DNA of 64,000 nucleotides from the sequence record PZ445429.1. One strand, 5' to 3'. The first letter of the stretch is position 1. Each line of letters begins with the position of its first letter. The position numbers were made by a program, and so were the translations under genes. This stretch comes from a phage. Shown piece by piece: positions 3,037 to 27,805 of the stretch. The notes below the pieces were generated by a model. The model did not search any database. It was given only the letters and a program-made list of their open reading frames with translations, and was not told where the DNA came from.

Positions 3037-5367
3037 ATGAGCCATCGCATCGAAAAAGTAATTAAACGTGACGGTACTGTTCAGGACTTTGCTCCTGAAA
3101 AACTCAATGATTGGGCTGCATGGGCATGTAAAGATACTGACGTAAGTTGGTCTGCCGTAGTTATGGCTGCCCTGAAAAATCTACCCAAAGGTGTTGTAGA
3201 TTCCGATACACTCCAAGATGTGTTAATTAAAGCTGCTGAAGGTCTTATCAAAGACAATCCAGCATATGATACTGTAGCAAAGGAATTACGTCTTGCGCAG
3301 ATGCGTAAACGCCTCTATGATTCCTTCGAACCACCTTCTCTACGTTTCTTCCACGATCATATGGTTCGTGTCGGCGCTTGGGAAGACATGAGTGCATGGA
3401 TTAGCGATGATCAGTTTGACGCTCTGAACCAAGTTATTGATCATGATCGCGATCGTTTATTCACCAGTGGTGGACTGAAACAGTTCTTCGACAAGTATTC
3501 CCGTCGTAATATTGCAACTGGTGAAATTTATGAAACCCCGCAGTTTGCCTACATGGGTATGGCAATGGCGATGCTATCTCAACCTAACTGGACAATTCTC
3601 GATGCAATCGACCTCTACAACGCAATGTCACTCCATAAAATCAACGTGCCGACTCCACCTCTCGTGGGTCTTAGGAGCAGCGACCGCGGTTTTGCTTCTT
3701 GTTGTCTTGTTGATAGTACTGATACCCTCGATTCAATCGACACAGCCGAGCACATCGTCTTCAAAATGGTCGCAGCCAGAGCGGGAATCGGGTATCATCT
3801 TGAAAGCCGATCAATTGCTGATCCGGTGCGAAATGGGGCATTCCCGCATTCCGGAAAACTGCCATATTATCGACACATTGACCGATCAGTAAAAGCTAAC
3901 ACTCAGCAAACCCGTGGTGGTTCTGCTACTGTGTCTTACCCATACTTCGATCCTGAAATCATTCAGTTGATGCAGGTTAAGCAGCAACGTGCTACAGACG
4001 AGAATAAAATCGATAAGATGGATTACTCTCTGAGCTTTAACAACCTTCTGTTAAAACGTTACCTGAAAAATGAAGATATTACGCTAATGTCCTACTTCTA
4101 CGCACCAGAAGTTCATGAAGCGTTTTATGGCGAAGATGAGGCTAAGTTTGAAGAAATCTACGTGGCAGCGGAGAAACGTGTGGCATCTCTTACAAAGATC
4201 GACCACGAAGGAAAAACAATTCCAGCAGCTCCTAGAATCTCTGCAAAAGAAATCCTAGATACTTGGTTACGTATCCGTATGGAAACAGGGCGTATGTATG
4301 CTCATCACATTGGTGAATCTAACCGTCATGGTAACTTCCTTGACCCGATTCGTATGACCAACCTTTGTGTTGAAATTACTCAGCCAACCCGTCCATTCCA
4401 TCACATTACGGAGCTGTATAAGACCCAAGATCAGTTAGACGATATGCGTCCAGAAGATATTGGTGAAGTATCTCTGTGTAACTTAGGTGGTGTTGTACTA
4501 GGTCGTATGGAATCTCTGGCTGAATGGGAGAAAACTTGCTACATTCTTCTGAAATTCGTTGATACAATCATCGAGATTCAGGATTACCCATTCCCAACTA
4601 TGGAGTACACGGCTAAGAAACGTCGTAACGTTGGTATTGGTCTGATGAACGCAGCAGGTGCAATGGCAGCAGAAGGTTTGGCTTACGAAGGTGTTGAAGC
4701 CCGTAACTGGATTCACCGTGAAGCTGAAAAGCTGTCCTACTTCCTACATAAAGCCTCTGTACGTCTGGCTAAAGAACAAGGTGCATGTGACTGGTTTAAT
4801 CGTACTAAGCCTTCGCAAGGAACTCTGGTAATCGACACGTACAAGAAAACTGTTGATGAACTGGTAACTGTAGGTCTAGAAATGGATTGGGAATCTCTGC
4901 GTGCAGATATTCTGAAATATGGTATGCGCAACTCTGTTCTGACTGCTCAGATGCCAGGTGAAAGTTCCTCTGTACTGCTAGGTGTTACTAACTCTATCGA
5001 ACCGCCCCGTAAGATCGTATCTATCAAGGGTAGTGCAGTGAATAAAGTAATTGCAATTGCTCCAGGTGCAACTGATTGGGATACATTAATGAGCTATAAA
5101 CTGGCTTATGATGTAGATCGTATCGAGTGGATCAAATGGGTAGCAACCATGCAGAAATTCTTCAGCCAGTCTATCAGTACGAATATGTACTATGACTACA
5201 CCAAGTTCGAGAATGAAATCATTCCCGGCCCAGTAGTAGTTCGTGACTTTATGACTGCTGTTAAGTACGGTTGGAAAACTTGGTACTACGCTAACTTCAA
5301 CACTGAAAATGGTGGTGGAGCTGGTGAAGAAGCAGCAGGTTGTGCATCAGGTGGTTGTAACCTATAA
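3037..5367 (+). CDS. nrdA: ribonucleoside-diphosphate reductase alpha subunit (class Ia)
   Basis: ATP-cone VIKRDG at N-terminus, catalytic NLCVEI region, C-terminal Cys pair, 776 aa; start moved to ATG 3037 with RBS AAGGAAAG. Confidence 0.95.
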   Translation: MSHRIEKVIKRDGTVQDFAPEKLNDWAAWACKDTDVSWSAVVMAALKNLPKGVVDSDTLQDVLIKAAEGLIKDNPAYDTVAKELRLAQMRKRLYDSFEPPSLRFFHDHMVRVGAWEDMSAWISDDQFDALNQVIDHDRDRLFTSGGLKQFFDKYSRRNIATGEIYETPQFAYMGMAMAMLSQPNWTILDAIDLYNAMSLHKINVPTPPLVGLRSSDRGFASCCLVDSTDTLDSIDTAEHIVFKMVAARAGIGYHLESRSIADPVRNGAFPHSGKLPYYRHIDRSVKANTQQTRGGSATVSYPYFDPEIIQLMQVKQQRATDENKIDKMDYSLSFNNLLLKRYLKNEDITLMSYFYAPEVHEAFYGEDEAKFEEIYVAAEKRVASLTKIDHEGKTIPAAPRISAKEILDTWLRIRMETGRMYAHHIGESNRHGNFLDPIRMTNLCVEITQPTRPFHHITELYKTQDQLDDMRPEDIGEVSLCNLGGVVLGRMESLAEWEKTCYILLKFVDTIIEIQDYPFPTMEYTAKKRRNVGIGLMNAAGAMAAEGLAYEGVEARNWIHREAEKLSYFLHKASVRLAKEQGACDWFNRTKPSQGTLVIDTYKKTVDELVTVGLEMDWESLRADILKYGMRNSVLTAQMPGESSSVLLGVTNSIEPPRKIVSIKGSAVNKVIAIAPGATDWDTLMSYKLAYDVDRIEWIKWVATMQKFFSQSISTNMYYDYTKFENEIIPGPVVVRDFMTAVKYGWKTWYYANFNTENGGGAGEEAAGCASGGCNL

Positions 5368-5376
5368 TAAAAACAA

Positions 5377-5401
5377 GGAGATCTTCGGGTCTCCTTTTTT
5401 C
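5377..5401 (+). terminator. rho-independent terminator after nrdA
   Basis: GGAGATC-TTCG-GGTCTCC then TTTTTTCTTT. Confidence 0.65.
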
Positions 5402-5414
5402 TTTGAAATTTTAC

Positions 5415-5443
5415 TTGCTAATCGCTACCAGATTTGCTATAAT
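5415..5443 (+). promoter_or_regulatory. early promoter TTGCTA-N17-TATAAT (HNH/nrdB unit)
   Basis: exact -35/-10 hexamers with 17-bp spacer. Confidence 0.6.
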
Positions 5444-5467
5444 ATCTCTATATTAAGGAGATATACT

Positions 5468-5986
5468 GTGAAACCTCAACTAACAAAAGAATTTCTAGAG
5501 AAATATCTAGAACTCAGAGAAGATACTCTCTATTGGAAGCCAAGAGAGACTAATAAAGGTGGATTTAATACTAGATTTGCTGGAAAACCTGTAGGAGCCG
5601 TCAATGGAAATGGCTACCTATGCTTCCGACTTAACGTGGAAGGTTATAGATGGGAATTAAGAAATCATGTAGTAATCTTCTGTCTCTATTATGGATATTA
5701 CCCAACTAAGACAGTAGACCATAAAGATACAAATAAACTTAATAACCATCCTTTAAATCTACGAGAATCAACCGATGCTGGTAATGCCCAAAATAGGGGA
5801 GCCGGTAAAAACAATACCCATGGACATAAAAACCTAGAGCCTCTTAGTTCAGGAAACTGGAGGGTTAGGATAACACACAACGGTACTGTTTACAGATCTT
5901 CCGCAATGCCTCTAGAAAAAGCTCTAGAACATAGAGATATTAAACTTAAAGAATTTCATGGCGAATACGCTAATAATGGAGAATAA
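5468..5986 (+). CDS. HNH homing endonuclease (free-standing, between nrdA and nrdB)
   Basis: YYGYYPTKTVDHKDTNKLNNHPLNLRESTDAGNAQNRG HNH motif; own promoter TTGCTA-N17-TATAAT (5415-5443) and RBS AAGGAG before GTG 5468. Confidence 0.75.
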   Translation: MKPQLTKEFLEKYLELREDTLYWKPRETNKGGFNTRFAGKPVGAVNGNGYLCFRLNVEGYRWELRNHVVIFCLYYGYYPTKTVDHKDTNKLNNHPLNLRESTDAGNAQNRGAGKNNTHGHKNLEPLSSGNWRVRITHNGTVYRSSAMPLEKALEHRDIKLKEFHGEYANNGE

Positions 5987-14917: not shown

Positions 14918-15359
14918 GGAAGAGAATATTCTAGATGTTTTGCGTAGGGCTTTGCAGGAATCTAAGGTTGATGGTTCTGATAAAGAAGTAGCTAAAAGCT
15001 ACCAGACCATAATCGGAGATCTTCAGCGTGTTGATAAAGACTTCATTACTTCTGAACAGTTTGTATCTTATCTAAAAGCTCAACTGAAAAGCATTAATCA
15101 GACGAAAGCTAAACTTCACGGTCAAGACCTCGATAATTATAGCTTGCAGTCTGCTCAGTATGAATATATACTGAACAAATGGTTACAGCAGTATTTGCCT
15201 CCTCAGCTATCTGATTCTGAGATTCGCAAATACTTTGCAGAATTAGTTAAGTTGAACCCTGGGATTACAAAAGGTATGCTGATGAAAGCGATTAAGGAAG
15301 AGTTTCCTGGTCGTTACGACGGTGGCATTGCTGCTCAGGTTGCTGGCGAATTTAATTAA
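14916..15359 (+). CDS. hypothetical protein (147 aa)
   Basis: ORF overlapping previous stop (ATGA-type coupling). Confidence 0.5.
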   Translation: MEENILDVLRRALQESKVDGSDKEVAKSYQTIIGDLQRVDKDFITSEQFVSYLKAQLKSINQTKAKLHGQDLDNYSLQSAQYEYILNKWLQQYLPPQLSDSEIRKYFAELVKLNPGITKGMLMKAIKEEFPGRYDGGIAAQVAGEFN

Positions 15360-15885: not shown

Positions 15886-16513
15886 TAATAGTGGGGTGCC
15901 GAAACCACTTATGTAACAACACTGCCGTCCTAGTATAATAGGTATTATTAGGGCTTCACCGCCTGAAGATGTGGGTTCGAGTCCCACGGTCGGAAAGAGT
16001 TGGATAACTGGTGCTTCTAATGGCGAAGCAATCGCAGGCAGTTGCGCACTGCCAAAACCACGCGGTAGTTGGTTCCAGGCTAACCAACCACTCTTGAAAA
16101 GTATATACTATGGTTTTGCTTGTTCAAGAAGCTTCGCATCGAAAATCGGAGGTGCGATTTTATCCGACCGCGTGGAGGACGTCTCTCCGTTAAGTGACGA
16201 AAAGTGGGACGATTCAGGTAGAGCTGGATATGGAACACCTATACATATGCGGAGTGCGCACAAAGCATATTGCGGTGGTACTAAACGAAATTAGGAGTCA
16301 TGACCTGCACAAGTTTAGTATGTCATAACCGATGTACATTCAGTACAAAAACCACTGAAGCTAAGATAGATAGTCACCTTGACTTAAACTGGAAGATATT
16401 GTCTGACGGAAGGGCTGCAGAGCTTAATCTGAGGGGGCTGACCCTACCTACCGTCGGGTATCTTTAAGAGCTTTTATAAGAGTTCTTAAAAATACCTAAC
16501 AAAAGGAATCAAT
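15886..16513 (+). ncRNA. ~630-nt ORF-poor GC-richer segment with tRNA-like T-arm and hairpins (candidate structured RNA)
   Basis: GUGGG-UUCGAGU-CCCAC T-arm at ~15971-15988, hairpin GGCAGUUGCGCACUGCC, long-range complementarity GGUCGG(15990)/CCGACC(16166); only a low-quality 107-aa ORF. Confidence 0.25.
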
Positions 16514-18401: not shown

Positions 18402-18821
18402 TTAGGATTTCTCCCCATTTTGCGCTTTTGCAACTTGACTTTGACAGAAACTGTTAAACTTACCCATAAGTGATACAAGTTGCTTTCCATCCTCTGTTTT
18501 AGCGAAGTCTTCGAAAAGGGCTAGAACAGCCTGTCCTTCCGCAGATACCTGCGGTTGTTGGGTTTGTTGAGTCATCTGCTGCTGTGGTTGCATTTGCTGA
18601 GGCATCATCTGCTGAGGCATCATTTGTTGCATTTGCATTTGCGGCTGCATTTGCATCTGGTTGATGTTTCCCTGCGGGTTTTGCAGGGAATTTTGCATTT
18701 GCTGTGCTTCTGCCAATCTCTGTTGCAACTGTTGTAAGTAGGGGTTATCAAGCCCCGGAACGGGCTGCTGGGAGCCCATACTTTGATTAAATCCGTTGTT
18801 CACAAAACCATATTTACTCAT
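18402..18821 (-). CDS. Gln/Met-rich low-complexity protein (139 aa)
   Basis: minus-strand ORF with RBS GGAGGAG; QMQPQMQMQQMMPQQMMPQQ repeats. Confidence 0.5.
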   Translation of the reverse strand: MSKYGFVNNGFNQSMGSQQPVPGLDNPYLQQLQQRLAEAQQMQNSLQNPQGNINQMQMQPQMQMQQMMPQQMMPQQMQPQQQMTQQTQQPQVSAEGQAVLALFEDFAKTEDGKQLVSLMGKFNSFCQSQVAKAQNGEKS

Positions 18822-18843: not shown

Positions 18844-19839
18844 TTAAGCCGGCAGTTTAGCCTGCAGACCAGCCAGAGTCTGAGTGATAGCACCAAGACT
18901 TACAGCGATTTGGTTGATTACCTGACCGTTAGCACCACTACCCTGAGCGATAGCTTCACGCAGACGGCATTCGTTCAGTTCGTCCTGAATACGCGCAGTA
19001 GTTACACCAGCGATTGCAGACTGAAGTTCACAGCAGCATTCAGCGATCTGACGTTCCAGAGCGTTCTGGTTAGCACAAGCCTGAGCAGCTACAGCAGCGA
19101 ACTGGTTGTTAGTCTGGATAGACTGAGCAAACATGATCTGAGCGGTATCGAACTTGTCTTGAGCACGTGCGATCTGGTTAGCAGCGAAAGCTTGATCCAT
19201 CTGGCGAGAAAGATCGAACTGACCCTGAATAACGTTACGAGTTTCCTGACAGATCTGGTTGGACAGGTTAGCACCAGTACCGTAGATCGTAGTCAGAAGC
19301 TGTTGAGTACTAGCAGCTTGAGCAGCTCCTACACCATTTACTGCACTCAGAACAGCACCAGTACCCTGATTAGCTTCAGTACGAGTAGTGTTGATTGCAG
19401 CTAGAATACTTGCAGTATCCTGGTTAGAAAGGATCGCGTCCACAGCAGTTCCCTCAGCGGCAACACCAGCACCGCGGCCAAAACCACCGAAACCACCGAA
19501 TCCACCTGTTAATAGAGCACCGATTAAGATAGCTCCGAATAGACCCATACCTTCACCACCGAAAGCACCGTTAGCAACTGCTGGGTAACCACCCATTAGG
19601 CCAGGGAAGCCACTAGTGAATACGTTTACTGGTTCTTGCATTTTATGTTTTCCATGTTTATGACAATGTTCATCATCGTCATCTTCTTCATCATCTTCAT
19701 CGTGTTCACGATGTTCTTTTTCGTAGGCTTTGACCTTCTCCCACTTTTTCTTGTCTGATTCTTCGTGACGACGCAGTTCTGCTGCTACGCCAGCGACCGT
19801 ATCAGGACTCTTAGCTACTTCTTCTGTCATTTTTGACAC
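18844..19839 (-). CDS. His/acidic N-terminus plus glycine-zipper membrane segment protein (331 aa)
   Basis: minus-strand ORF with RBS GGAGGTG; HREHDEDDEEDDDDEHCHKHGKHK then GGFGGFGGFGRGAG then Ala/Gln-rich domain with CCC motif. Confidence 0.55.
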   Translation of the reverse strand: MSKMTEEVAKSPDTVAGVAAELRRHEESDKKKWEKVKAYEKEHREHDEDDEEDDDDEHCHKHGKHKMQEPVNVFTSGFPGLMGGYPAVANGAFGGEGMGLFGAILIGALLTGGFGGFGGFGRGAGVAAEGTAVDAILSNQDTASILAAINTTRTEANQGTGAVLSAVNGVGAAQAASTQQLLTTIYGTGANLSNQICQETRNVIQGQFDLSRQMDQAFAANQIARAQDKFDTAQIMFAQSIQTNNQFAAVAAQACANQNALERQIAECCCELQSAIAGVTTARIQDELNECRLREAIAQGSGANGQVINQIAVSLGAITQTLAGLQAKLPA

Positions 19840-20036
19840 CTCCTAGTATATAGAAAATGTGTGTCTCTTTGATCACTCATCCATAACATATACTTTACAC
19901 TACCCCAGCGAAAATGTCAAGGGGTCTTTAAAAATTGCCCCCGGATTTTTAGTGGGGTAACAATTTCTGGACCTCACCACTCACCTGCTACCCTTAAGTG
20001 CCCTGCGATTTTCCACTAAAAAGTTTAAAAATTCGA

Positions 20037-20065
20037 TTGCTTGAATGCTAAATTCTCTATATAAT
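20037..20065 (+). promoter_or_regulatory. early promoter TTGCTT-N17-TATAAT (nadR-pnuC)
   Basis: family consensus. Confidence 0.6.
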
Positions 20066-20095
20066 ATATTTATAAATTTGAGAGAGGAATCAAAT

Positions 20096-21151
20096 ATGAT
20101 TAAGACTGGTCTAGTAATTGGTAAGTTCGCACCATTAACGCGTGGTCATATTAACCTAATAAACACAGCAGCAACTATGTGTGAACGAGTTATTGTTGTA
20201 GTTAGTCATGATAATCGTTGGCTGGATAAGCAGAACACACGTGATCAGGAAGTATTACAGTTAAAGAATCGACTTCGTTGGTTAGAACAAACTTACGCGG
20301 ATATTGAGCACATTTCGGTAGAGTACATTATTGAAGATGATATTCCTGAATATCCGAATGGTTGGCCGGAATATGCTAGAATCCTTAATGAAAATTACGG
20401 ACATTTGCCTGAGATCACCATTTTCTCTAGCGAACTAGACTATGATGCAGAATATAAGAAATATCTGCCGAAGTTTGGTCATTATATTGTAGATTCTGAT
20501 CGGACTCGTGTTCCAATCTCAGCTACAATGATTCGTAATGATCTTATGAAGTATTGGGAGTTTCTTCCTAGCGTAGTTCGTAAAGATTACGTGCGTAAGG
20601 TTGTAATCATTGGGACTGAAAGCTCGGGAAAGACTACTTTAACAAAATACCTTGCGAAGCTATACAACACTTCGTGGGTAGAAGAATATGGCCGAACGTA
20701 TTGTGAAGTTGATCTAGTTGGTAACGAAAATCTACTTACCAGTGAAGATTATAGTAAAATTGCGTTCAGACACAAAGAGCTAGAGTTTGAAGCAGAACGT
20801 ACTGCAAATAAGATCATGTTTGTGGATACAAATGCTTTTATTACTGAGTTCTACCACAGACTTTATGAACATCGTAAGAATCCTGTGGTTACAGCAATTG
20901 CAAAAGAAGAACATTACGATTTAGTAATTGTTCTAGCGCCTACTGTTAAGTGGGTAGATGATGGTTTACGTATTAACTCCGATCGTTCAATTACTTCTGA
21001 ACTGTTCGAGCAGATGAAGAAAGAATTTCCAAATCAGTTCCCTGAAGGGCGTACTGTTTACATCGACTCCCCGGACTACAAAGTTCGTATGGACGAAGCA
21101 GTAAACGCAGTAGACTGGCTGATTCATCACTTTAACGTTGGAGAGTTTTAA
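20096..21151 (+). CDS. nadR: NadR-like bifunctional NMN adenylyltransferase / ribosylnicotinamide kinase
   Basis: GKFAPLTRGH nucleotidyltransferase (H/T)xGH motif; second P-loop VIIGTESSGKTTL; promoter 20037-20065. Confidence 0.7.
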   Translation: MIKTGLVIGKFAPLTRGHINLINTAATMCERVIVVVSHDNRWLDKQNTRDQEVLQLKNRLRWLEQTYADIEHISVEYIIEDDIPEYPNGWPEYARILNENYGHLPEITIFSSELDYDAEYKKYLPKFGHYIVDSDRTRVPISATMIRNDLMKYWEFLPSVVRKDYVRKVVIIGTESSGKTTLTKYLAKLYNTSWVEEYGRTYCEVDLVGNENLLTSEDYSKIAFRHKELEFEAERTANKIMFVDTNAFITEFYHRLYEHRKNPVVTAIAKEEHYDLVIVLAPTVKWVDDGLRINSDRSITSELFEQMKKEFPNQFPEGRTVYIDSPDYKVRMDEAVNAVDWLIHHFNVGEF

Positions 21152-21152
21152 T

Positions 21153-21830
21153 ATGACTAACTATCTTGTAAATGACTTTAAAAACTGGAAACCTTTGGAA
21201 TATCTGTGGCTGTTTATAGCAGTCGCCTTTATTAGTTTAGCAAACTATAATGGTACAGCTCTAGATTGGGCTACTGCAATAACCAATGTGGTTTGTGTTA
21301 TTCTGGTTGCAAAAGGACGTGTTTCCAACTATATTTGGGGCTTAGTGGGTGTTCTTACATACGGTATTACAGCTTTAAACGCAGATCTTTATGGTAATGC
21401 TGCACTAAACCTGCTATACTACGTTCCTATGCAGTTTTATGGAATGTACTTATGGCATAAAAATAAGCCAAGTAATCTGCCAGATGTTCCAACTAAGGTT
21501 CTGAATAAAGCCCAAGCTCTGCTGACTCTAGGGATTCTAGCAGTAGCTACTTTAGGTTACGGCAGCTTCCTTGCTACTACCGCTGATCCATTCCCAATGC
21601 TTGACGCATTTACTGCGGTTGGTAGTGTGATTGCTATGTGGCTTATGGTCAAACAATATGCTGAACAATGGCTGATTTGGATTGTTATTAACATTGGTAC
21701 TGTGTACATTTGGCTTGTAACTGCTCAATCTACAGGTGCATCTTACGCAATCCTAGCAATGTGGCTAGTATTCTTAGGCAACTCTATTCTTGGAGCTTAT
21801 AAAGGATACTTTGTACGCGTTAACAAATAA
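21153..21830 (+). CDS. pnuC: PnuC-like nicotinamide riboside transporter
   Basis: multi-TM protein, translationally coupled to nadR, WGLVGVLTYGITAL / Trp-rich PnuC-like helices. Confidence 0.6.
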   Translation: MTNYLVNDFKNWKPLEYLWLFIAVAFISLANYNGTALDWATAITNVVCVILVAKGRVSNYIWGLVGVLTYGITALNADLYGNAALNLLYYVPMQFYGMYLWHKNKPSNLPDVPTKVLNKAQALLTLGILAVATLGYGSFLATTADPFPMLDAFTAVGSVIAMWLMVKQYAEQWLIWIVINIGTVYIWLVTAQSTGASYAILAMWLVFLGNSILGAYKGYFVRVNK

Positions 21831-21837
21831 AGTAGTT

Positions 21838-21862
21838 ATAGCCCTCTAAGCGAGGGCTATTA
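21838..21862 (+). terminator. hairpin terminator after pnuC
   Basis: ATAGCCCTC-TAAGC-GAGGGCTAT. Confidence 0.55.
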
Positions 21863-21940
21863 TACAGAAATTTTCACTTGCTTAATATAGAAAATTTCTG
21901 TATAATATATTTATAAATTCGAGAGAGAGAGGAATCAAAC

Positions 21941-22237
21941 ATGAAACGCATTGTACTTGCATTGACTCTAGTATCTACTTCTGTATTTGCTGCTCCGCAA
22001 CAGGAACTTTGTCAAGTTCAGGTTTGTAATAAGTTAGAACGATTTACTTTGGATATTTGGTCACACATTAAAGATAATATGGGTGAACAGTGTTTTGATA
22101 TTGTTCTGCCAAAAGAGCAGGCTGTTCCTGGTGCTGTTCTTAGCTCAGAGTCACGTTGGTGGCAGGGTTCTTCTATCAACCCAACTAAGAAGTCAGTGAC
22201 ACGTATCAAACAGGTATATCAGTGCAATGTTCAGTAA
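21941..22237 (+). CDS. secreted Cys-containing protein (98 aa)
   Basis: signal peptide MKRIVLALTLVSTSVFA; promoter upstream. Confidence 0.5.
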   Translation: MKRIVLALTLVSTSVFAAPQQELCQVQVCNKLERFTLDIWSHIKDNMGEQCFDIVLPKEQAVPGAVLSSESRWWQGSSINPTKKSVTRIKQVYQCNVQ

Positions 22238-22246
22238 AATTTCACT

Positions 22247-22276
22247 TGCTTAATGCCGAAATTTTCTGTATAATAT
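22247..22276 (+). promoter_or_regulatory. early promoter TTGCTT-N17-TATAAT driving the first tRNA block
   Basis: TTTCACTTGCTT ... CTGTATAATAT immediately upstream of tRNA-Ser. Confidence 0.55.
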
Positions 22277-22288
22277 ATTCATAAATTT

Positions 22289-22382
22289 GGAAGATTAACC
22301 CTAAAGGTAAGGGAGCTGTTTGCTAAACAGCCAGTAACTGTGGATACACGGTGTGCCAGTTCGAATCTGGCATCTTCCTCCA
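22289..22382 (+). tRNA. tRNA-Ser (anticodon GCU), type II
   Basis: acceptor GGAAGAU/AUCUUCC, anticodon loop UUGCUAA, long variable arm, T-loop UUCGAAU, CCA. Confidence 0.65.
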
Positions 22383-25455: not shown

Positions 25456-26037
25456 ATGCACGGAATATCCTTACCCATTCCAGGGTTTGAGGAGTACTTA
25501 GTAAGTTTGGATGGGTTAGTATTTAGTATCAAATCAAACAAAATACTAACCCCAATAACCAGTAATTACGGATACTTATCTATACGTCTCCATAAAAATG
25601 GTCAACAGAGAAATACCGGTGTACATAGGATTTTAGCATGTGCATTTAAGAAATTACCAAGTCTAGACTCTGAACTAGAAGTTGACCATATTAACACAGA
25701 CATTACTTATTGGGGTCTTAATAACTTACAAGTGCTCACAAAAGAGCAGCATCTAGAAAAGACTTTAAAAGACAAAGGATTTAGTAAACTAAACCATGAT
25801 AATTGTTGTAAGGATTGTGGTAAAGCTATTTCTTTAAAAGCTGAAAAATGTCAGGAGTGCTCTTCACATAAACCAAAAGATATCTCTATAACTAAAGAAA
25901 TAATCGAGGTTACAGTAAGAGAGCTAGGCTGGTCAGGTGCAGGGAGAAAGTTAAGTTATTCAGATAATGGGTTGCGTAAAAGATACACTTCTTTAGGAGG
26001 CAATCCTAAAGAACTTAAAAAGTTAAAGGTACTATAG
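25456..26037 (+). CDS. HNH homing endonuclease with C-terminal zinc ribbon
   Basis: HRILACAF...EVDHINTD...NNLQVLTKEQH HNH core; CKDCGK...CQEC. Confidence 0.65.
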   Translation: MHGISLPIPGFEEYLVSLDGLVFSIKSNKILTPITSNYGYLSIRLHKNGQQRNTGVHRILACAFKKLPSLDSELEVDHINTDITYWGLNNLQVLTKEQHLEKTLKDKGFSKLNHDNCCKDCGKAISLKAEKCQECSSHKPKDISITKEIIEVTVRELGWSGAGRKLSYSDNGLRKRYTSLGGNPKELKKLKVL

Positions 26038-27177: not shown

Positions 27178-27342
27178 ATGAAATTATTTCGTTTAAAAGT
27201 AAGTGATCTACGTTCTAGCAAAGATCGTAAGAAGTATCCACTAGCCCATTACGGTAAAGATGAAAACGAAGTGATGGCGGAATTTGGTATTAATCATCCT
27301 TACTTAAAAGTCTACTCTATTAAAGAAGTCTATGCTAATTAA
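27178..27342 (+). CDS. small ORF (54 aa), not in track
   Basis: RBS AAGGA before ATG 27178. Confidence 0.35.
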   Translation: MKLFRLKVSDLRSSKDRKKYPLAHYGKDENEVMAEFGINHPYLKVYSIKEVYAN

Positions 27343-27805
27343 TAAAGTTTTAGCTGCCTTAAACCTTCCTGATAACTTCATTATAGATGATAAGCTCATA
27401 AGAGCTTATATGAGCAAATATAACGAAATTTCGGGTAAAGAAGGTAAGTTAAAAACTTCAGAGTTTAGATTCTGTTATCGAATGGCAGCCTTAAATCTCT
27501 TAAAGTATAAAAGGGAGCATAAAATACCTATAACGGAAGGTTTTGTATATGTAATTGGTAATCCAGCATGGCCAGGCATGTATAAAATAGGTATGACTAT
27601 AGATGTGAATGAGAGGTTAGCAAGTTATCAAACTTATTCACCTAATAGAGACTACAAGCTATACCATTTCAGATTTTCGTCGGATAAAAGACGTACAGAG
27701 AAAGAATTACATAATCTTCTTAAAGATTATAGAGTATCTGGAGAATGGTTTGAAGTACCTGTACTAGATGCTTTTAAATTATTAGTAGAAAAATTGGATT
27801 GCTAG
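27332..27805 (+). CDS. T5orf172-type (GIY-YIG-like) domain protein, putative homing endonuclease
   Basis: GFVYVIGNPAWPGMYKIGMT ... EWFEV pattern of GIY-YIG-like/T5orf172 family; 3' end overlaps tRNA start. Confidence 0.55.
   Translation: MLINKVLAALNLPDNFIIDDKLIRAYMSKYNEISGKEGKLKTSEFRFCYRMAALNLLKYKREHKIPITEGFVYVIGNPAWPGMYKIGMTIDVNERLASYQTYSPNRDYKLYHFRFSSDKRRTEKELHNLLKDYRVSGEWFEVPVLDAFKLLVEKLDC

Follow-up and report, generated by a model that had tools for sequence, protein, structure and literature searches.

What does the nadR-like and pnuC-like gene pair of this phage do, and could it counter bacterial defences that work by depleting NAD+? NAD+ depletion is among the commonest bacterial routes to abort a phage infection. 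Whether a phage can grow on NAD+-depleting hosts is decided by phage routes that rebuild NAD+, and these routes are relevant to the design of phage therapy. An earlier interpretation of this DNA, referred to here as the sequence-only reading, had proposed that the two genes convert imported nicotinamide riboside (NR) to NAD+ and that this may have an anti-defence function. The window, meaning the whole stretch of 64,000 nucleotides that was analysed (sequence record PZ445429.1), was used to examine the two proteins, their expression signals, their published relatives and their neighbours.

The window comes from a T5-like phage (Demerecviridae, Epseptimavirus) of Salmonella/E. coli. Over bases 19840-22000 the identity was 99.8% with Salmonella phage EH3 and 99.4% with Sw2 and Stitch (both Demerecviridae, Epseptimavirus), and at least part of the stretch was matched by 395 phage records. 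The genes around the module encode PhoH, ribonucleotide reductase, DHFR, thymidylate synthase, dNMP kinase, an A1-type DNA transfer protein and a receptor-binding protein, together with a block of 28 tRNA genes. Together these genes make up the T5 early and pre-early regions. Two extra minus-strand genes upstream of the module (18402-18821 and 18844-19839) are common to the window, Sw2, Stitch and T5. Both ORFs of the module are on the + strand, exactly where the sequence-only reading had placed them, and no ORF on the minus strand opposite them is longer than 58 aa. The coding features are as follows.

20096-21151, + strand: nadR-like gene without the HTH domain, 351 aa (Pfam, NCBIfam, PHROG, identity to Bas30_86).
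Residues ~1-160 of the nadR-like product, + strand: NMN adenylyltransferase domain (motifs TRGH and ISAT).
20138-20149, + strand: TRGH nucleotidyltransferase signature, residues 15-18, the T variant of (H/T)xGH.
20516-20527, + strand: ISAT, second motif of the NMN adenylyltransferase domain.
Residues ~165-351 of the nadR-like product, + strand: ribosylnicotinamide kinase domain (P-loop).
20612-20635, + strand: P-loop GTESSGKT of the ribosylnicotinamide kinase domain, residues 173-180.
21140-21143, + strand: ribosome-binding site of pnuC (GGAG), within the end of the nadR coding sequence.
21153-21830, + strand: pnuC-like nicotinamide riboside transporter gene, 225 aa (Pfam, TIGR01528, PHROG, 4QTN).

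The nadR-like product contains two Pfam domains, CTP_transf_like at residues 7-147 (E 3.3e-7) and the P-loop kinase domain AAA_28 at residues 168-314 (E 1.1e-31). PHROG 3462, annotated as 'nicotinamide-nucleotide adenylyltransferase', matches it end to end (E 8.7e-154). The NCBIfam NadR profile NF005988 scored 256.1 bits against a cutoff of 201, and positions 65-407 of its 411 positions were aligned. Since the match begins at profile position 65, the N-terminal HTH repressor domain is absent. The score with TIGR01526 was 272.8, below the equivalog cutoff of 341.15. Judged by these profiles, the nadR-like product is a diverged, truncated relative and no equivalog of the bacterial trifunctional NadR. 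The sequence-only reading had called it a NadR-like bifunctional enzyme with an HxGH adenylyltransferase motif and a ribosylnicotinamide-kinase P-loop. The bifunctional assignment and the P-loop are borne out by the two Pfam domains, by GTESSGKT and by 350/351 identical residues in the published enzyme Bas30_86. The nucleotidyltransferase motif is also present, but it reads TRGH and not HxGH.

The neighbouring claim, a PnuC-like NR importer adjacent to nadR, agrees with all of the searches. The pnuC-like product matched the Pfam NMN_transporter family PF04973 (E 2.2e-43, 148.7 against a cutoff of 27.3), TIGR01528 PnuC (120.6 bits against a cutoff of 42.45) and PHROG 1880 (E 3.4e-73). The solved PnuC structure of Neisseria mucosa, 4QTN, was also matched (E 1.3e-32). 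The HMM search that had been suggested as a check of the gene identities thus placed NF005988, PF04973 and TIGR01528 above their cutoffs and TIGR01526 below. Chance ORFs or decayed pseudogenes can be rejected as an explanation of the locus, for both genes are full-length, E-values against phage families go down to 8.7e-154, and protein identity is 95-100% across ~200 phage genomes. Pnu-family substrates include thiamine or riboflavin relatives, and family-level HMM matches alone do not fix the substrate. A second alternative is that the transporter carries another Pnu-family substrate, or that the NadR-like protein is a regulator rather than an enzyme. The low TIGR01526 score is on the side of this alternative; the absence of the HTH domain speaks against a regulator.

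The nadR and pnuC genes do not overlap. The nadR stop codon TAA (21149-21151) is followed by one base and then by the pnuC ATG at 21153. The Sw2 annotation has a ribosome-binding site at the place equivalent to the GGAG at 21140-21143. Translational coupling of the two genes is plausible, with a 1-base gap and a GGAG that are compatible with it. An alternative pnuC start at TTG 21138 was rejected because it goes against the crystallised/annotated Bas30 proteins and the start of the PHROG profile.

The sequence-only reading had placed the pair under an early promoter of its own. The signals found around the pair are listed below.

20037-20070, + strand: predicted sigma-70 promoter of the T5 early type (sequence; alignment with P15a).
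20071-20095, + strand: conserved leader with a ribosome-binding site, ATAAATTTGAGAGAGGAA (recurrent cassette, alignment).
21838-21860, + strand: hairpin AUAGCCCUC-UAAGC-GAGGGCUAU, directly 3' of pnuC.

The promoter has a -35 element TTGCTT (20037-20042), a 17-nt spacer, a -10 element TATAAT (20060-20065) and the discriminator ATATT (20066-20070). It aligns nearly base for base with P15a of the T5 RefSeq record and with the region upstream of TrudiRoth bas30_0086. Klimuk et al. 2020 (PMC7472727) report ATATT as the discriminator of every known T5 early promoter. An early promoter belonging to nadR-pnuC, as had been claimed, is thus well supported by the sequence. The leader sequence ATAAATTTGAGAGAGGAA stops 6 nt short of the nadR ATG, with GAGG at 20084-20087, 8 nt before the ATG. 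Against 0.19 expected, the window contains 15 copies of the cassette of -10 element and leader; 13 lie on the + strand. A generic promoter scan made no call at nadR. This was overturned by the alignment to annotated T5 promoters; the scanner missed the site because TTGCTT has only 3/6 bases of TTGACA. A possible nadR start at ATG 20045 was also considered and rejected, since it lies inside the promoter and disagrees with the crystallised/annotated Bas30 protein and with the start of the PHROG profile.

The hairpin downstream of pnuC has a predicted energy of -17.1 kcal/mol (z = -4.1), and no shuffled sequence was as stable. A terminator is annotated at the equivalent position in Sw2. The hairpin is probably a terminator; its U tract is weak. 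The consensus scanner made no terminator call here because the T tail is too short. Between positions 15000 and 23500 tRNA was the only known RNA family to reach the Rfam gathering thresholds, which makes a known NAD+ riboswitch unlikely and suggests that the module is probably controlled by its promoter alone. From the arrangement of these signals we infer that nadR and pnuC would be transcribed together and early. A paper on expression timing in Yersinia phage phiR2-01 makes no mention of nadR/pnuC genes.

A structure search hit the entries 9X6F and 9X6H, and the TrudiRoth locus (MZ501109) was then compared directly with the window. The nadR-like product is identical to Bas30_86 of Escherichia phage TrudiRoth (9X6H/9X6F) at 350/351 residues (99.7%); the only substitution is R260 in the window, which is S in Bas30_86. 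The pnuC-like product is identical to Bas30_87 at 221/225 residues (98.2%), with differences at A25V, N118T, V178A and L213M. Together Bas30_86 and Bas30_87 are NARP3 (Yan et al., Sci Adv, 12 Aug 2026, PMC13464706). None of the five substitutions falls at a residue tested in that study. The NR-binding residues N45, Q94 and N180 of the transporter are kept in the window. So are the mutated or pocket residues K10, F11, S37, E80, P84, G89, F110, S112, D115, V139, I141, K163, R167, K168, E230 and D275 of the enzyme. The likeness extends to the locus, with the same gene pair, order, 1-nt spacing, promoter and leader in a phage of the same genus, Epseptimavirus. One difference is that TrudiRoth lacks the minus-strand genes of the window at 18402-18821 and 18844-19839. 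As far as the sequence goes, no feature contradicts identification of the module with NARP3.

The properties of NARP3 have been measured (PMC13464706). Crystal structures of Bas30_86 were determined without ligand (9X6H) and with NAD+ bound (9X6F), and in vitro the enzyme converts NR to NMN and NMN to NAD+. Bas30_87 binds NR with a Kd of ~0.66 uM, and N45A, Q94A and N180A each abolish binding. Both genes together, and neither alone, restore NAD+ and NADH in cells with Sir2-HerA. Co-expression rescues T7 and lambda 10^3- to 10^4-fold from Sir2-HerA, and DSR1 is likewise counteracted. External NR is required for rescue, and in minimal medium its EC50 is ~4-6 uM. The anti-defence assays used plasmid-borne genes helping T7, lambda and Klebsiella phages.

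These measurements bear on the matter of substrate and function that the family-level searches had raised. The retained binding residues and the NR affinity of Bas30_87 argue against another substrate, and the in vitro activity of Bas30_86 argues against a regulator. The published data on near-identical proteins already contradict the alternative of another Pnu-family substrate or a regulatory NadR, which we rate as highly improbable. NR uptake and the conversion of NR through NMN to NAD+ are to be expected of the window proteins, given their near-identity to the measured ones. Very probably, then, the window module is a copy of NARP3 that produces NAD+ from imported NR. The two functional proposals of the sequence-only reading are both found in the literature: conversion of imported NR to NAD+ is published for Bas30_86/87, which share 99.7% and 98.2% identity with the window proteins, and the countering of NAD-depleting defence is published for the same two proteins expressed from plasmids (PMC13464706).

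The following sequence of events is proposed. Soon after entry of the phage DNA, host RNA polymerase would transcribe the nadR-like and pnuC-like genes as one short unit, driven by the strong T5 early-type promoter. The PnuC-like membrane protein would admit external NR to the cell. The kinase domain of the NadR-like enzyme would then phosphorylate NR to NMN and so trap it, and the NMNAT domain would adenylate NMN to NAD+, with two ATP spent overall. Without the HTH repressor domain of bacterial NadR, the NadR-like protein would act solely as an enzyme. NAD+ could thus be rebuilt from an external precursor during infection and could outrun NADase systems such as Sir2-HerA and DSR1. Since the pathway needs external NR, the value of the module would depend on the environment. 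By analogy with the plasmid experiments, an anti-defence benefit may also extend to a T5-like phage in its own Salmonella or E. coli host.

A competing explanation is that the main role of the module is metabolic support. NAD+ would be supplied to the NAD+-consuming enzymes of the phage itself and to redox metabolism after T5-type host shut-off, and the counter-defence effect would be a by-product. TrudiRoth, the closest relative that has been characterised, has genes for a Sir2-like protein and for both subunits (A and B) of an NAD-dependent DNA ligase, all outside the stretch covered by the window. Within the window, the neighbours of the module are ribonucleotide reductase, DHFR, thymidylate synthase and dNMP kinase. 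These genes fit a metabolic role, as does the fact that the anti-defence assays used plasmid-borne genes to help other phages. The size of the rescue from Sir2-HerA on heterologous expression points the other way, and the two roles are not exclusive. The T5 genome offers a further argument. In T5 the promoter P15a drives other cargo, a 171-aa Toprim-like gene (T5.076), and no homologue of NadR or PnuC was found in the part of T5 that was searched, positions 33-47 kb with the syntenic slot. It follows that the slot, within the early tRNA region, can exchange its cargo, and that the module is accessory rather than core. The presence of a different gene at this slot, within the 33-47 kb of T5 examined, argues against an essential housekeeping role. 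We regard a mainly metabolic role as possible though rather unlikely, and retain NAD+ rebuilding by NARP3, with its published effect on defence, as the preferred reading.

The DNA beyond the hairpin contains a further transcription unit.

From 21878, + strand: second T5-type promoter copy, TTGCTT 21878-21883 and TATAAT 21901-21906, of the adjoining unit.
21941-22237, + strand: gene for a 98-aa secreted protein, equivalent to bas30_0088, the next gene after pnuC.

The 98-aa protein carries a signal peptide and the motif SESRW(Y/W)QGSSINPTKKSVTR, and four of its cysteines are invariant. Its conservation is unusually high, at 47-85% identity over the full set of 75 clusters, and it belongs to no Pfam family. 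An AF2 model (pLDDT 76.6) consists of a strand, a helix and three further strands, and gave no significant match in the PDB. We examined 33 loci with the gene, including the window, equivalent to 20 clusters at 80% identity. NadR and PnuC were encoded 0.3-3.5 kb from the gene in 6/20 clusters from three unrelated lineages, which are T5-like, ~145-kb Mydovirus-like and ~360-kb Eneladusvirus/XbC2-like. The gene order is nadR-pnuC-orf98 in the T5-like phages and orf98-nadR-...-pnuC in the Mydovirus-like and Eneladusvirus/XbC2-like phages. Neither nadR nor pnuC was present within 6 kb in the remaining 14/20 clusters. ICP1 has the nadR/pnuC pair without the 98-aa gene, and the equivalent slot of T5 is without all three genes. 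The 98-aa gene is therefore regarded as a non-random but non-obligate neighbour of nadR/pnuC. It is not mentioned in the NARP3 paper (PMC13464706), and its recurrence beside the pair is a new observation. The 98-aa protein might be a third partner of the module, making NR available outside the cytoplasm or otherwise serving NAD+ salvage. This seems doubtful given the clusters with no pair nearby, the pair that stands alone in ICP1, and the two genes that suffice in E. coli.

The module itself is not novel, since it is near-identical to published NARP3. Phage NadR was listed among the NAD+ salvage enzymes countering NADases by Iyer et al. 2022 (PMC9503650), and the NadR-PnuC operon of BASEL phages was named as a probable further pathway by Osterman et al. 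2024. The evidence supports the sequence-only reading as correct, yet already known: the proposals date from 2022 and 2024, and the demonstration from 2026. The significance of the pair had likewise been argued already, from the predictions of 2022/2024 to the work with structures in 2026. What the window adds is an intact, essentially identical copy of NARP3 in a Salmonella Epseptimavirus under what appears to be a T5 early-type promoter, its location in a swappable promoter slot that holds a Toprim-like gene in T5, and the recurrent small secreted neighbour of nadR/pnuC.

Several known systems resemble the module. Bacterial NadR and PnuC have the same two-domain enzyme (NMNAT plus RNK) and the same transporter fold; the nadR-like product matched H. 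influenzae NadR 1LW7 (E 3.7e-55) and E. coli NadR 8X7F (E 1e-51). The bacterial proteins work by facilitated uptake followed by trapping through phosphorylation, as is proposed for the window module. They differ in three respects. Bacterial NadR has an N-terminal HTH repressor domain that the phage enzyme lacks, the first residue of the nucleotidyltransferase motif is H in the bacterial enzyme and T in the phage enzyme, and the genes are unlinked in E. coli while the phage pair appears to form one unit under a phage promoter. NARP1 (Adps plus Namat) and NARP2 (Nampt plus Nmnat, for example NadV/NatV of KVP40) are further phage-encoded pathways that restore NAD+ and weaken NADase defences. Both use other enzymes, NARP1 to recycle ADPR and nicotinamide and NARP2 to use nicotinamide and PRPP, whereas the window module would need external NR and a transporter. 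Among phages, NadR and PnuC at 90% or more identity to the window proteins are carried by ~200 T5-like records. More distant NadR-like and PnuC-like pairs, with only 35-47% identity to the window proteins, occur in Vibrio phage ICP1, Mydovirus, and the Eneladusvirus and XbC2 jumbo phages; the two genes lie side by side in ICP1 and Eneladusvirus-type phages, near each other in Mydovirus, and adjacent or nearly so in XbC2.

The gene directly 3' of pnuC encodes a 98-aa secreted protein, orf98, whose sequence includes four invariant cysteines together with the motif SESRW(Y/W)QGSSINPTKKSVTR. This gene and the other features considered here are listed below.

Features of the window outside nadR and pnuC
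5309-5986, +, HNH homing-endonuclease ORF between two ribonucleotide reductase subunit genes
15923-15996, +, tRNA-like gene, anticodon TCA (ARAGORN label SeC; Rfam tRNA 33 bits, cutoff 29)
18402-18821 and 18844-19839, -, two genes (PHROGs 7894 and 8119), flanked by the SPFH-like gene and the nadR promoter
20015-20098, +, nadR promoter region, compared with T5 NC_005859 37802-37876 (minus strand, 4790-4880 of the T5 segment L006)
21878-22237, +, T5-type promoter and gene of the 98-aa secreted protein (bas30_0088, PHROG 6894)
25456-26037 and 27332-27805, +, two ORFs in the tRNA block, candidate homing endonucleases by length and position

Between widely differing phages the 98-aa proteins are 47-67% identical. 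The gene adjoins nadR/pnuC in three unrelated lineages, in differing gene orders, and lacks them as neighbors in 14/20 sequence clusters. Comparison of the predicted structure with the PDB yielded no fold match, and the gene is not mentioned in the NARP3 paper (Yan et al., Sci Adv 2026, PMC13464706). As the list indicates, the promoter preceding the gene is its own.

Other NAD+ and ADP-ribose genes were identified in other phages. Outside the window, TrudiRoth, the nearest relative to have been characterized, encodes a two-subunit NAD-dependent DNA ligase and a Sir2-like protein (MZ501109 39377-41486 and 49559-50410). Both consume NAD+ and could profit from the salvage module. In the jumbo phages pEa_SNUABM_50 (Erwinia; L008) and XbC2 (Xanthomonas; L032), an ADP-ribosylglycohydrolase gene precedes the orf98-nadR-pnuC cluster by ~3.5-4 kb, a position that hints at a wider NAD+/ADP-ribose neighborhood.

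The sequence TATAAT-N6-ATAAATT-N-GAGAG, comprising a promoter -10, leader and RBS, occurs at 15 sites in the window (12540-61678) versus 0.19 expected. The + strand holds 13 of these copies, and several are immediately 5' of tRNA genes, such as that at 22269 preceding tRNA-Ser at 22289. The tRNA-like gene at 15923-15996 is separate from the main tRNA block, and its anticodon would read UGA. Within that block, the two candidate homing endonucleases agree in length and position with TrudiRoth genes annotated as putative homing endonucleases.

Neither minus-strand gene upstream of nadR matched Pfam. One product is strongly Q-rich. In the second, the N-terminus is acidic and rich in His, and the sequence also contains a Gly-rich stretch and a CCC cluster. 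The pair is present in Sw2 and absent from TrudiRoth; DNA alignment and size identify T5.078 and T5.077 as the T5 counterparts. The promoter before nadR is nearly identical to the annotated T5 promoter P15a, which in T5 drives a 171-aa Toprim-like gene (T5.076) in the place occupied by nadR in the window. Judged by these sequences, the slot appears to retain its promoter between T5-like genera while the cargo changes.
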